From a virus (taxonomy: Duplodnaviria; Heunggongvirae; Uroviricota; Caudoviricetes), in the IMG/VR virus record IMGVR_UViG_2545824714_000011, positions 1-17,579 of that record: a stretch of 17,579 nt of DNA; one strand, 5' to 3'. The notes beneath the pieces are model-generated. The model did no database searches. It was not told the origin of the DNA and saw nothing but the letters and a program-made list of their open reading frames with translations. The position numbers and the translations under genes were made by a program. Shown in pieces: positions 1 to 17,579 of this stretch (positions are counted from its first letter, which is position 1; each line of letters starts with the position of its first letter).

Positions 1-61
1 GGTATCCGTTCTGCTGAAGTGTCATGGCGTTGATTTTACGGTGACTCTTCGACAGTGAAAA

Positions 62-83
62 GAAAAAAGGCCGCAGAGCGGCC
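62..83 (-). terminator. Rho-independent terminator closing the minus-strand int/cargo transcript
   Basis: On the minus strand a GC hairpin (GGCCGC-TCT-GCGGCC, plus 69-83) is followed directly by TTTTTTCTTTTC (plus-strand A-run 62-68). It lies about 110 nt downstream of the stop of the 192-494 ORF. Confidence 0.6.
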
Positions 84-191
84 ATAAACACAAACAAAAA
101 TCAATAAGTTAGATAATTATCAAAGACTTACAGACACACAAAAACACAGCCAACCACAACAAATAACAGAGATGTGGTCACTTTGTGGATC

Positions 192-494
192 TTAAATCCA
201 GTGAAAACCTCTCGCCATTAAGCCAGCTAACCCCAAGGCTGTAGTAATCAACGCACCAAACATGAGCCTGAAATCTGTTGTGCGTATCTTATCAATATCG
301 CCTCTCACATCCTTGAGATCGCTCTTCAGCTCTTCAATATCTCTCTTGATGTATGAGATATCAGACTCCATTCGTGCAACACGGCTATCAAGAGCGAACT
401 CATCACGACTTGCCTGACTTCTGCGATTGCTCACCTGAATTCCTCCTGGATACGGAATGGAAAAACCCGTGATATAAGTATACTCATTCATCAC
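192..494 (-). CDS. Small coiled-coil protein with one C-terminal transmembrane helix (XhlA/holin-associated-like architecture), function unknown
   Basis: 100-aa ORF. A charged heptad-like segment (ESDISYIKRDIEELKSDLKDVRGDIDKIR) is followed by a hydrophobic stretch with small-xxx-small spacing (LMFGALITTALGLAGLMARGF). The start overlaps the stop of the upstream 484-867 ORF by 11 nt, implying co-translation. The XhlA resemblance is by architecture only. Confidence 0.55.
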   Translation of the reverse strand: MMNEYTYITGFSIPYPGGIQVSNRRSQASRDEFALDSRVARMESDISYIKRDIEELKSDLKDVRGDIDKIRTTDFRLMFGALITTALGLAGLMARGFHWI

Positions 495-867
495 CTGACC
501 CTTCCTGGTTTTTTTGCGATCCCAACCAGTTCAATACCGGAGTCACTGCATGCATAGTTATATAACCGCAGTTCTCACAAAAAGATTTGTAGTAATAATT
601 CGCATCACTATCACCTGGGTGACCTGGTTCAAGCCTGAAGTACGTCATAAACTCTTCCCCTTTTTCACCATCCAGGAGTTGTTGGAGATTTAACTTACCT
701 GTAGTGGCAGTTATCTGGGTATCTTTCAGCCCGCACCCAGGGCAAACCACAGTGACGTTTTTTTCATTTAAAAAACGGAAGAATTCTCTTGGCGTTATCG
801 ATTCCAGTTTTTTAATAAACTCCCGTTTTTTCTTTTCCATTTCCCCTGAATGTTCAATATCTTTCAT
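484..867 (-). CDS. Hypothetical protein with two CxxC pairs (putative zinc ribbon)
   Basis: 127-aa ORF with a lysine/glutamate-rich N-terminus and CPGCG ... CENCG motifs about 50 residues apart. Its ATG at 867 lies 11 nt after the integrase stop (878-880) and is preceded by a purine-rich AGGTAGGAAA stretch. Region is visibly more AT-rich than the phage core genes. Confidence 0.5.
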   Translation of the reverse strand: MKDIEHSGEMEKKKREFIKKLESITPREFFRFLNEKNVTVVCPGCGLKDTQITATTGKLNLQQLLDGEKGEEFMTYFRLEPGHPGDSDANYYYKSFCENCGYITMHAVTPVLNWLGSQKNQEGSGDE

Positions 868-877
868 TTTCCTACCT

Positions 878-1849
878 TCAAGCTATTGGATTAAATCTCA
901 CCGCATCCTGCAAGTAATCCGGCGCAAGATGGGCATAAATCATCGTTGTCTGAATCTTTGCGTGCCCCAGAATTTTCTGGAGCGTCAGAATATTGCCGCC
1001 GTTCATCATGAAATGACTGGCGAAGGTGTGGCGCAGCGCATGAACAGCCTGGCCGTCAGGAACATCAGATGCGACCGTTTTGATGACATCGCGAACCAAT
1101 GGATAATCCAGCGTCGGAAACACCAGTTTCCCGCCCCGTTTTTTGATCTTTTCAAACAGGCTTTCAGAAATAGGAACGGTACGGTTTTTGCTGTTCTTCG
1201 TTTTTGAAAAAGTGATTCGACAATGAAGAACACGGCGCTGCTCCAGTACCGCTACCTCGCCCCATCGCGCCCCGGTCGACAGAAGGATTTCGACAGCCAG
1301 CCGTTCATCGGGATTTTCAGCCAGTGCATCCAGTAACTGAACACATTCAGACTTACTCAGATATCCCATTTCGCGCTCGTTAACCTTCATTCCTTTAAGG
1401 CCTTGAACGGGGTTATCGTTAAGAAAATGGCCGGATGAGATGAGTGCGGTAAACATCGCGCTTAACGCCCCAATCTCTCGATTTATGGTGCTGGGCTGTA
1501 TCCCCTGCTCTATCCTGGACACACGTAGCTCGGTGAGCATCGTTGTATTAAGTTTATGCACGCACGGGTCATCCATTGCCTCACTCAAGCGCAGCAATTT
1601 AAGGCGCGTGTTATGCCCTGACTTCATTAGCTGGCCGTGGTATTTCCACCACAAGTCAATAAGCACTGACAGAGGACGGCGATCAATAGAGTTTCCTTTC
1701 CACTCATTGTTATGCTGTTGCGCCAGCACCCACCGCTCATATAAAACTGCATCCGATTTCGTTTTAAATTTTTTGCGAATGCGTTTGCCTTTACGCCCCT
1801 CAGGGCGCATGTCAAGAAGATACCCTCCCGGAATTGATTTTATGCTCAT
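878..1849 (-). CDS. int: P2-type tyrosine integrase
   Basis: The C-terminus carries the tyrosine-recombinase motif block (HALRHTFASHFMMNGGNILTLQKILGHAKIQTTMIYAHL). Start placed at the ATG at 1849 (MSIKS...); the ORF-track start at 1999 is an upstream extension that overlaps the repressor gene. Position next to a C-like repressor fits P2 layout. Confidence 0.9.
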   Translation of the reverse strand: MSIKSIPGGYLLDMRPEGRKGKRIRKKFKTKSDAVLYERWVLAQQHNNEWKGNSIDRRPLSVLIDLWWKYHGQLMKSGHNTRLKLLRLSEAMDDPCVHKLNTTMLTELRVSRIEQGIQPSTINREIGALSAMFTALISSGHFLNDNPVQGLKGMKVNEREMGYLSKSECVQLLDALAENPDERLAVEILLSTGARWGEVAVLEQRRVLHCRITFSKTKNSKNRTVPISESLFEKIKKRGGKLVFPTLDYPLVRDVIKTVASDVPDGQAVHALRHTFASHFMMNGGNILTLQKILGHAKIQTTMIYAHLAPDYLQDAVRFNPIA

Positions 1850-15679: not shown

Positions 15680-15836
15680 AGCTTCAGCCCCTTGTATCCG
15701 TTAAATGATTCGGCAACAATCATCACCCACCACGCGCGTAATCTCACCCCTGCGCCGTTCTCTCGCCACGGCGACAACAAAAAGCAGTAACCCCCTCCGC
15801 ACGCACATGCGACCATGCCGCACAGGGAGGGAACAG

Positions 15837-16946
15837 ATGACCGACACCACCATGCAATTGCTCAGTCAGGGCACAGACCCCGTAAAAATGCCGGATTTTG
15901 ATATTCTCGCGGAGGGTAAAACGCTGTCAGGCGTGGCAGAGCGCCTGATGAGCCTGTCACTGACCGACAACCGGGGATTTGAGGCGGACCAGCTCACCAT
16001 CACGCTGGATGATGCGGATGGTCAGTTGCAGCTACCGCCACGGGGCGCGCGCCTGACGGTTCTCATTGGCTGGAAAGGAGAACCGCTGACAGAAAAAGGC
16101 ACTTACATTGTTGATGAAATCGCTCACGAAGGACCGCCGGACAGGCTGACTGTTTCAGCCAGAAGCGCAGATTTTCGGGATGAATTTAACGTTAAACGTG
16201 AGGTGTCCTGGCATGATGTGACCGTTGAGCGTGTGGTATCCGCCATCGCTCATCGGTATGGTCTGAAACCGCAAATCAGCGAAATGCTGATGGATATCGA
16301 AATCGACCACGCCGACCAGACCGAAGAAAGCGACATGTCCTTCCTTACGCGCATGGCGGAAATGCTGGGCGCAATCACTACGGTAAAAAGCGGTAATCTG
16401 TTATTCATCATGCCAGGCGGTGGCGTGAACGCACAGGGCCAGCCGTTGCCCTCGTTCGCCATCACGCGCAGCAGTGGCGATCGCCATCAGTTCCGCATTG
16501 CTGACCGCGAAGCGTATACGGGGGTACGCGCTTACTGGCTTGATCTTAATTACGGGAAAAAGAAAAAAGTCAGCGTGAAACGCCGCAAACCGCCAAAACC
16601 CAAAAAGGAGAAAAGCAGCAGCCGTGAAGGTGATTATATGGAAGGCGCGGAAGGCAATGTGTTTGTGTTACGCAAGACCTATCAGAACGAACAGGCAGCA
16701 AGACGCGCAGCGGCGGCAAAGTGGCAGCAGCTACAACGCGGAGCCGCATCATTCTCCATCACGCTGGCGCGTGGACGTGCAGAACTCTACCCCGAAATGC
16801 ATGGTACGGTAACAGGATTTAAAAGCGAGATTGATAATCAGGACTGGATCATTGCAAAAGCCGAGCACACTATTGATAACAGCGGCTTTACCACGCAGCT
16901 TGAGCTTGAGGCAAAAATCCCGGAATGGATAGCGGAAACAGAGTGA
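15837..16946 (+). CDS. D: Tail protein gpD
   Basis: Start set at the ATG at 15837 with a GGGAGG Shine-Dalgarno; the track ORF begins at 15705. About 369 aa, gpD-like. Divergent from FI across a roughly 157-bp intergenic region. Confidence 0.85.
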   Translation: MTDTTMQLLSQGTDPVKMPDFDILAEGKTLSGVAERLMSLSLTDNRGFEADQLTITLDDADGQLQLPPRGARLTVLIGWKGEPLTEKGTYIVDEIAHEGPPDRLTVSARSADFRDEFNVKREVSWHDVTVERVVSAIAHRYGLKPQISEMLMDIEIDHADQTEESDMSFLTRMAEMLGAITTVKSGNLLFIMPGGGVNAQGQPLPSFAITRSSGDRHQFRIADREAYTGVRAYWLDLNYGKKKKVSVKRRKPPKPKKEKSSSREGDYMEGAEGNVFVLRKTYQNEQAARRAAAAKWQQLQRGAASFSITLARGRAELYPEMHGTVTGFKSEIDNQDWIIAKAEHTIDNSGFTTQLELEAKIPEWIAETE

Positions 16947-16988
16947 GCAACTTAGAATAGCGGCAGCACCACGTTAAGGGAGGTCGCT

Positions 16989-17249
16989 ATGTTCCGTTGT
17001 CCGCTTTGTGGCGCATCTGCCCGTATCCGCACCAGTCGTCCGGAAAATGATTCAAACACCGTGCGGCAAAAGTATTACCAGTGTAACAACCTGGAATGCG
17101 GCGTATGCTTCTCAACACTGGAAGCTTTCCATAAATTCACATCGAAACACGCCTCCGGCGTTCACTCTTCAGAAGGTATCCCGTGGCATGAACTGCCAGC
17201 TTCACACAGGGGAAACAATCAGATGAGCTTGCCTTTACCTCAGAATTAA
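16989..17249 (+). CDS. ogr: Ogr/Delta-family zinc-finger late-gene activator with a C-terminal extension
   Basis: The N-terminus MFRCPLCGASARIRTSR...YYQCNNLEC has the C-x2-C...C-x4-C zinc-finger spacing of P2 Ogr. GGGAGG Shine-Dalgarno. 86 aa against about 72 aa for P2 Ogr. Confidence 0.8.
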   Translation: MFRCPLCGASARIRTSRPENDSNTVRQKYYQCNNLECGVCFSTLEAFHKFTSKHASGVHSSEGIPWHELPASHRGNNQMSLPLPQN

Positions 17250-17438
17250 CAGGCAGAATTGCCGGAGTAACAAAAAAGCGATAGATTACGTGCGGGTGCC
17301 TTTCGGCTGATGGTCGGAGGGAATACCCGAAGGCCGGATGTGGAAAGGCCCCGGAAAACATTTCTGTTTAACCGAGGCCCTAACCCGTCAACCTAGCAAG
17401 TGATAGGTTAGCGCCTCTCCAACAAAGGAGCAAGCGCT

Positions 17439-17579
17439 ATGTCGCAAAAATCGCTTACGGCCATCACGTTCTGCGTGACGGTAATCCTCATCATCTGGAT
17501 GCTGCACGGTTCGCTGTGTGAAATACGGATGAGCTTCTGGGGAGCGGAGTTTGCGGCGTTCTTACAGTGTAAGCAGTAA
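17439..17579 (+). CDS. Hok/Gef/PndA-family type I toxin-like small membrane protein
   Basis: 46-aa ORF below the track cut-off: MSQKSLTAITFCVTVILIIWMLHGSLCEIRMSFWGAEFAAFLQCKQ. An N-terminal transmembrane helix is followed by SLCEIR and EFAAFL, closely matching Hok and PndA as recalled (e.g. PndA ...FTWMIRDSLCELHIK...ELAAFLACK). AAGGAG lies 8 nt upstream. Stop codon is the last three bases of the window. Confidence 0.65.
   Translation: MSQKSLTAITFCVTVILIIWMLHGSLCEIRMSFWGAEFAAFLQCKQ

Follow-up and report, generated by a model that had tools for sequence, protein, structure and literature searches.

The stretch of DNA analysed here, 17,579 nucleotides of a virus record (IMGVR_UViG_2545824714_000011) that as a whole is called the window in the following, carries an element with the regulatory and contractile-tail genes of a P2-type phage. 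By synteny and nucleotide identity it belongs to this group (Peduoviridae): the comparison with the genome NC_049391 (Xuanwuvirus P88_4B11) gives 91.9–96.0% nucleotide identity over three long blocks and 79% over a short stretch of int. A first-pass annotation made from the sequence alone had left it open whether the element is a decaying prophage or the locus of a tailocin, i.e. of a head-less tail particle. We consider it likely that it is a recently deleted P88/P2-type prophage, mixed on its right side with a second prophage copy by an assembly chimera, and not a domesticated tailocin.

Genes at the locus

The gene content was determined from a listing of open reading frames (ORFs), from Pfam and PHROG scans and from tblastn searches with every protein of an intact relative, L021 (ETEC1701). 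Present according to these scans and searches are an integrase, a C-type helix-turn-helix (HTH) repressor, a cox-like ORF, ogr and hok, together with the tail genes V, W, J, I, H, G, U, T, E, E', FII, FI and D (Table 1). From V to hok the encoded proteins match those of L021 over their full length with 97.7–100% amino acid identity, the tape measure protein T being the exception. All ORFs of the baseplate and fibre operon V–G (3765–9398) are intact (98.3–100% amino acid identity to L021), and the slippery site A_AAT_TTT of E/E' (13389–13927), as read from the sequence, is intact as well. In the remnant of the early operon (2304–3588, plus strand) the gene order is that of intact relatives. The acetyltransferase gene is convergent with G and overlaps it.

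With the same L021 proteins (tblastn, E ≤ 1e-3) no match was found in the window for the replication and head genes A, ParM, Q, P, O, N, M and L, for holin, endolysin, LysB and LysC, or for the tail genes X, R and S. For lysis genes Pfam returned a sub-threshold XhlA-like match in the 99-aa cargo ORF and nothing else. X, R and S are positioned between L and V in every intact relative, and they are essential in P2. By name P2 X is a “tail protein” and R and S are “tail completion proteins” (PMC3091744), and X is counted among the baseplate proteins (PMC10719855). The inventory of the first-pass annotation (int, C, a cox-like gene, ogr, V–G and the set from FI to D present; head, replication and lysis genes absent) was thus reproduced, with the exception of its statement that every structural tail gene is there, which has to be withdrawn since X, R and S are missing. 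A genome able to form virions would contain A, portal, terminase, capsid, lysis genes, X, R and S; the window has none of them and therefore represents a defective derivative.

Table 1. Features of the window with positions, strand and basis of assignment
Feature	Position	Strand	Basis or remark
Host DNA upstream of btuC	1–58		btuC abuts position 1 in L013–L020 and in source contig L026
attL core, 25 bp, AAAGAAAAAAGGCCGCAGAGCGGCC, identical with ihfA terminator hairpin	59–83		same 25-mer at both ends of the L001 (L2_E1649) remnant
Cargo ORF, 99 aa	192–491	-	between attL and int; PHROG family of unknown function
Cargo ORF, 127 aa	484–867	-	between attL and int; PHROG family of unknown function
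Tyrosine integrase, 323 aa as called in source contig	878–1849	-	Pfam Int_N, Phage_integrase
C-type HTH immunity repressor, 102 aa	1899–2207	-	Pfam HTH_3; PHROG 147, transcriptional regulator
cox-like ORF	2304–2582	+	PHROG 575, Cox-like, E=1e-7
DUF4761 ORF	2597–2935	+	Pfam
Early ORF	2946–3224	+	ORF listing
DUF4754 ORF	3236–3478	+	Pfam
Early ORF, 37 aa	3475–3588	+	ORF listing
Fusion ORF over the deletion junction, 30 aa	3676–3768	+	comparison with left and right parents
V	3765–4346	+	Pfam
W	4343–4693	+	Pfam
J	4697–5593	+	Pfam
I	5586–6113	+	Pfam
H	6124–8781	+	Pfam
G	8781–9398	+	Pfam
Hexapeptide-repeat acetyltransferase (moron)	9362–9925	-	Pfam Hexapep; “serine acetyltransferase” in relatives
U	10096–10584	-	Pfam Phage_P2_GpU; 100% aa identity to L021
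Tape measure T, split by 2-nt deletion at 12388	10597–13402	-	alignment to intact T
Stretch alternating between btuC-site and leuZ-site alleles	11060–16950		three-way alignment
Tail chaperone E'	13392–13544	-	Pfam Phage_TAC_7, tblastn
Tail chaperone E	13553–13927	-	Pfam Phage_TAC_7, tblastn
Tube FII	13983–14495	-	Pfam Phage_tube
Sheath FI	14495–15679	-	Pfam Phage_sheath
D	15837–16946	+	Pfam Phage_GPD
ogr	16989–17249	+	Pfam Ogr_Delta
hok-family toxin	17439–17579	+	PHROG 251 also among the matches of the D–ogr–hok end

On the left the element begins in the terminator of ihfA, beside btuC. In the L001 remnant the second copy of AAAGAAAAAAGGCCGCAGAGCGGCC lies at 30317–30341; ihfA and the int-side operon of the phage both end in this hairpin, and integration of this phage group duplicates the ihfA terminator. 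The two cargo ORFs that follow overlap each other and are carried by all prophages at the btuC site, the intact ones included. The 99-aa product consists of a coiled coil and a C-terminal hydrophobic stretch, and the 127-aa product contains a CxxC...CxxC pattern. They represent a possible moron or defence pair; PADLOC reported no defence-system match for the cargo and early ORFs. Between the divergent repressor and cox-like genes the direct repeat TATAAGTACAC is found at 2220–2230 and 2254–2264, 34 bp apart, and the P2-style direct-repeat appearance of these two copies makes them likely candidates for the repressor operators.

At the other end the gap between D and ogr (16947–16988) corresponds to a variable cargo slot; the window and the leuZ-type elements have no cargo there (43 nt). 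In other prophages it is occupied by hxsABCD, a His-Xaa-Ser radical-SAM system (btuC prophage of E1739, L024 33466–37279), by a DUF3800 gene (L2_E1649, L001 27973–29465) or by a hypothetical gene (ETEC1701, L021 30207–31215). Rfam at gathering thresholds gave no match in the window, including no sok-like RNA near hok, and a tRNA scan of the window found nothing, the leuZ cluster lying just beyond it.

Junction and age of the deletion

The window corresponds to a complete prophage of the same site minus 15,470 bp, as seen by comparison with a reference rebuilt from L015 and L009, two loci of one genome. Relative to NC_049391, window positions 2618–3750 represent the early region and the sequence from 3743 onward starts 22 nt before V. 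These 22 nt are the only native sequence left upstream of V. The genes removed comprise A, parMR-like genes, portal, terminase, scaffold, capsid and head completion genes, X, holin, endolysin, LysB/C, R and S.

At the join the left parent reads GACGAACGCCTGATT followed by ACCAC and the right parent GATGAACGCCTGATTTATAACACAGTGCTGGGCCGGATT followed by GCGGAGG, and in the window GACGAACGCCTGATT is directly followed by GCGGAGG. The two parents share a 4-bp microhomology, GATT, at 3747–3750 (six of seven positions for CCnGATT). A 12-bp identity, GAACGCCTGATT, is also present in both of them and is located 24 bp upstream of the join in the right parent. Because the join lies at the microhomology, with the 12-bp identity 24 bp off, we interpret it as a product of illegitimate recombination and not as an attachment site, the end of an insertion sequence or a homologous exchange. 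In both the 67-aa early ORF and the region near the end of S (3729–3768; L003–L012 9950–10004) GAACGCCTGATT encodes ERLI in frame. There are two options for its role: either it aided misalignment, or a deletion mediated by the 12 bp was followed by an in-frame loss of 24 bp.

The deletion created a short fusion ORF to which the 67-aa early ORF contributes the first 25 codons and gene S the last five and the stop. As the reading frame is kept, the resulting 30-aa ORF ends at the native S stop and overlaps the start of V (GTGA). Gene calls for both the NCBI contig and the independently assembled Logan contig include this ORF.

This last observation bears on the question whether the deletion itself is an artefact of assembly and the prophage in the isolate is complete. 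Such an error is conceivable in a contig that is demonstrably unreliable further right (see below), the more so as GAACGCCTGATT is an identical string present in both parental regions. We nevertheless regard it as very unlikely: the join is found 24 bp past this identity, at the 4-bp GATT, where overlap or k-mer assemblers are judged unable to join, both flanks of the junction are sequence of the single-copy type, and the identical junction was obtained in two assemblies (NCBI and Logan).

Both sides of the deletion are almost unchanged if compared to intact phages. Window positions 1–3750 show two mismatches to seven intact prophages at the same site, and at positions 3743–11000 (about 7,250 nt) about five mismatches separate the window from three intact same-site prophages; for L011/L012 the number is likewise about five. 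The closest complete counterpart is the P88-like prophage in the genome of enterotoxigenic Escherichia coli (ETEC) E1739 (NZ_CM180506.1, 1,828,008–1,864,600), which shares the site, int, C and the early and cargo ORFs (99.95% nucleotide identity); V–G, the acetyltransferase gene and U of the window are about 99.9% identical to those of intact same-site P88-like prophages. If compared to this E1739 btuC prophage the window lacks the 15,470 bp from A to S as well as hxsABCD between D and ogr, and its right end is of the leuZ type.

The single parts of the element are abundant and its layout is rare. The identical V protein was found in 1,711 blocks of a large collection, and all ten places shown are complete prophages with the genes from Q to S upstream. 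For the 127-aa cargo ORF the same collection gave 1,156 blocks; of the eight places shown, seven are intact prophages beside btuC and the eighth is a remnant with another deletion. Only three contigs recorded there contain the 30-aa fusion ORF. The exact junction pattern is absent from the GTDB species representatives and the junction occurs in none of 5,426 complete E. coli genomes; the comparison across strains that the first-pass annotation had proposed thus shows no conservation of the reduced layout. The near identity (about 99.9%) of both sides with the intact prophages of the btuC/ihfA site indicates a very recent deletion, and the rarity of the layout one that is limited to about one lineage. 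The intact ORFs therefore reflect too little time to decay and not selection, and the intact, tightly coupled operons, which the first-pass annotation had taken as a sign of retained function, are in this respect a sign of recency.

Other remnants of the same phage family are known from the same two sites, namely L2_E1649 and CP043262 at btuC and L1_E925 and E1739 at leuZ. Their breakpoints differ from each other and some are IS1-mediated. Like the window these E. coli P2-like remnants are internally deleted and (partly) head-less with ogr, hok and tail genes kept; their breakpoints are unlike that of the window. The differing breakpoints are best read as random decay of prophages by independent events, and not as a conserved tailocin locus.

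A contig that joins two prophage sites

The window is identical to the draft contig APZM01000059.1 (GCA_000356885.2) over the 15,197 nt compared and, in a second locus, over window positions 1–13768. In this contig the left flank is btuC-btuE-btuD, and hok is followed by a 93-aa ORF, tRNA-Leu(taa) (leuZ), tRNA-Cys, tRNA-Gly, pgsA, uvrC and uvrY. The contig thus runs about 1 kb past hok to tRNA-Leu, and the element exceeds the window. Head or lysis genes of the same element immediately outside the window, which by the first-pass annotation would have refuted a tail-only element, were looked for and are not present: the left side has btuC and the right side hok, an ORF and leuZ.

These two flanks belong to different sites. 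The right end of the window (15837–17579) is of the leuZ-site type and shows 100% identity with leuZ-site elements, on into leuZ-cysT-glyW. In ETEC E1739, whose complete genome is 99.9% identical to the left arm and 100% identical to the right flank, there are two separate elements: the intact prophage at btuC/ihfA and, at leuZ, an IS1-truncated remnant of the order int-IS1-acetyltransferase'-U-T-E-FII-FI-D-ogr-hok. Both have the same orientation and lie about 240 kb apart, with ihfA, pheT and pheS directly between them, and over 7.2 kb the two copies are 93.5% identical.

The leuZ-site prophage shows a stepwise erosion driven by IS1, as seen in L023 (NZ_LR883050.1) and L025 (NZ_CM180506.1). 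IS1 interrupts the acetyltransferase gene of the leuZ-site element at L023 11467–12789 and L025 27689–28807, and the E1739 leuZ element has an IS1-bounded deletion that reaches from the integrase-side genes to the acetyltransferase gene.

For a mosaic test window positions 9930–16950 were aligned with E1739 copy A (btuC type) and copy B (leuZ type). At the variable sites the window has the A state 264 times, the B state 209 times and a private state once; two further columns are due to the 2-nt gap in T. There are 51 switches between A and B, 25 of them within at most 10 nt. Pure A sequence is found at 1–11000 and at 13500–13939 (111 sites, the most divergent part of the two copies) and pure B sequence from 16259 to the end. 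Natural third alleles behave differently in the same test, with private or third-state sites of 6% (L021), 19% (L001) and 35% (NC_049391).

The independent assembly, the Logan contig of SRR488686, has the same deletion junction and agrees with the window over positions 1–9883 with five mismatches and no gaps. At 9883 it breaks off, shortly after the two-copy repeat sets in at about 9706; the final two variant sites of this contig are of the B type. We also noted three positions (3210, 3908 and 4436) where the NCBI contig differs from the Logan contig; at each of them Logan has the base of the E1739 btuC prophage, and at 3210 this base is also shared with seven other intact prophages. Either the draft assembly is wrong at these positions or sibling isolates differ in them. 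About 4–5 kb to the left selO is split into ORFs of 126 aa and 351 aa in L026 and L027, both assemblies of the source lineage (locus 982–2417); its length is 478 aa in eight other strains, and the source lineage probably has a genuine pseudogene here.

Two features that characterize a chimera are therefore found here: the contig links, through a shared repeat, loci that are distant in closed relatives, and a mixture of A and B states almost free of private variation is accompanied by an independent break at the edge of the repeat. Beyond about 11 kb the window probably represents the consensus of two prophage copies that were collapsed as a repeat. Some points count against this interpretation. 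Short A/B switches at shared polymorphisms are numerous in natural alleles too, the evidence for a collapse comes from sequence patterns and not from coverage or pileups, and the NCBI contig is recorded with three samples. The number of switches was dropped as proof of an artefact because the natural-allele controls switch often too; since this count is not diagnostic, the argument for a chimera rests on the near absence of private sites, with A and B states that have nearly equal shares.

If the contig were correct, the prophages of the btuC and leuZ sites would have exchanged sequence by recombination or gene conversion, and both the resulting hybrid and its frameshift in T would be genuine. 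Two copies with 93.5% identity over 7.2 kb and in the same orientation in E1739 can recombine in principle, and natural P2-like alleles are mosaic themselves. Yet a crossover in the E1739 orientation would delete about 240 kb beginning with ihfA-pheT-pheS, and pheST is essential. In addition 51 switches (25 at 10 nt or less) with a single private nucleotide difference go beyond a few recent exchanges, and the independent assembly stops at the repeat boundary with no read-through. We regard this hybrid as improbable. An origin of the btuC–leuZ join as reciprocal product of a tandem duplication or inversion was rejected too: both flanks keep the K-12 orientation, which fits a deletion product only.

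The reading as collapsed consensus also covers the tape measure gene. Here a 2-nt deletion at 12388 splits T into an ORF of 339 aa and one of about 590–607 aa. The gap coincides with a switch from B to A, where both copies have GATA in registers that are 2 nt apart. Among the 1,070 complete E. coli genomes matching this segment none has the 2-nt deletion, and the 12 matches listed are 283 nt long each versus 281 nt in the window. The 339-aa product is on record in the NCBI contig only; for the 607-aa downstream ORF a look-up returned no record, the gene caller having used another start. Most probably the “frameshift” in T is an artefact of the consensus. The first-pass annotation had used it as an argument for decay; the 2-nt deletion is indeed in the sequence, and its position within the two-copy mosaic stretch makes it unreliable for that purpose. 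The true element most probably extends to ihfA and may have cargo in its D–ogr gap.

Decayed prophage or tailocin

The preferred explanation, a recent deletion combined with a chimeric contig, can be put as follows. A P88-like prophage (Xuanwuvirus, Peduoviridae) would have been resident in the ihfA terminator beside btuC of an E. coli host close to ETEC E1739. One event of illegitimate recombination would then have removed 15,470 bp, with end points at codon 25 of a small early ORF and 22 nt ahead of V. Judged by its gene content, the remnant alone should be unable to replicate, to package, to lyse the host or to complete a tail. It is predicted to give C-mediated immunity still, may excise by int and cox, and would retain ogr, hok and the acetyltransferase moron. 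During draft assembly the U-T-E-FII-FI-D region would have been merged with the 93.5% identical copy in the P2-like remnant at tRNA-leuZ, which would have produced the site-by-site mosaic, the spurious 2-nt gap in T and the exit of the contig into the leuZ flank.

The transcription of such a remnant can be sketched from its intergenic regions. In the divergent FI/D region a dyad GTTCTC-N10-GACAAC followed by AAAAAGC is found (15757–15778), which resembles a dyad in the P/O intergenic region of intact relatives (looser pattern GTTCTS-N10/11-(G)ACAAC). It represents a candidate Ogr-dependent late-promoter element, and the side that includes FI–U and D–ogr probably keeps its late promoters. Both occurrences of the strict P2 box TGT-N12-ACA in the window (8676 and 9810) lie within coding sequence, and the looser dyad was found upstream of neither V nor R. 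On the plus strand no terminator-like site was detected between the early ORFs and V. Because the native DNA upstream of V–G is deleted and no terminator-like site precedes V, this operon is probably read through from the C-repressed early promoter. Late transcription of P2 normally needs phage DNA replication, so the loss of A would be a further obstacle to it. The promoter assignment for V–G is weak: the strict box is located at no operon start, neither in the window nor in the intact relative, and the 200 nt that precede V in intact relatives contain no late-promoter-like dyad. With respect to the defects of the remnant it must also be considered that X, R, S and lysis functions may come from another prophage of the same genome.

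The competing view is that of a domesticated or nascent tailocin, a tail-only P2-type locus that is under selection and forms killing particles under the control of C and Ogr. The genes for baseplate, fibre, sheath, tube and chaperone as well as U and D are all intact, ogr and C are kept, and the fusion ORF preserves the GTGA stop/start overlap with V. P2-derived tailocins do exist in Enterobacterales, an example being dickeyocin P2D1, which several Dickeya species have conserved (PMC10719855). Dickeyocin P2D1, the xenorhabdicins and the R-pyocins have contractile tails homologous to P2 V, W, J, I, H, FI, FII, U and D and are head-less like the window (gene sets in PMC10719855 and PMC4684702). 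There are differences as well. Known tailocins are conserved across strains or species and their particles are released on induction (PMC10719855). In characterised R-tailocin clusters, including those of Pseudomonas, modules for holin, endolysin and spanin flank the tail genes as a lysis cassette of their own (PMC4684702); the window locus has none, is limited to about one lineage and hardly differs from live phages.

Measured against the features of R-type tailocins, the full set of tail assembly genes is incomplete here (X, R and S are absent and T is interrupted, the latter probably as an artefact), an own lysis cassette is absent, and a head-less layout conserved at a fixed locus was not found. 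With about 99.9% identity to intact phages the intactness of the genes is no signal of selection; moreover the native region upstream of V–G is deleted and A is gone, on which late transcription of the P2 type normally depends through phage DNA replication. A domesticated or nascent tailocin is therefore barely credible to us. What remains of the two proposals of the first-pass annotation is the decaying prophage, which arose by a single recent 15.47-kb deletion and not through the frameshift in T; the tailocin is unsupported.

A related scenario would see the birth of a tailocin in progress, in which the deletion strips off head, replication and lysis genes and fuses V–G in frame to the C-repressed early operon, with translational coupling preserved. 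We hold it to be extremely unlikely. If it were true, X, R, S and lysis would be provided in trans by co-resident P2-like prophages and additional tails with this fibre specificity would be formed.

In our preferred reading as recently deleted prophage the element is another cryptic P2-like remnant, a well-known kind that is common in E. coli. For the analysis of such loci this has three consequences. Where a remnant is 99.9% identical to a live phage, the intactness of its ORFs carries no information on retained function. Two prophage copies that collapse into one consensus can give a draft contig a “frameshift” and an unusual gene neighbourhood. Finally, any proposal of a tailocin from a P2 “tail set” requires X, R and S.

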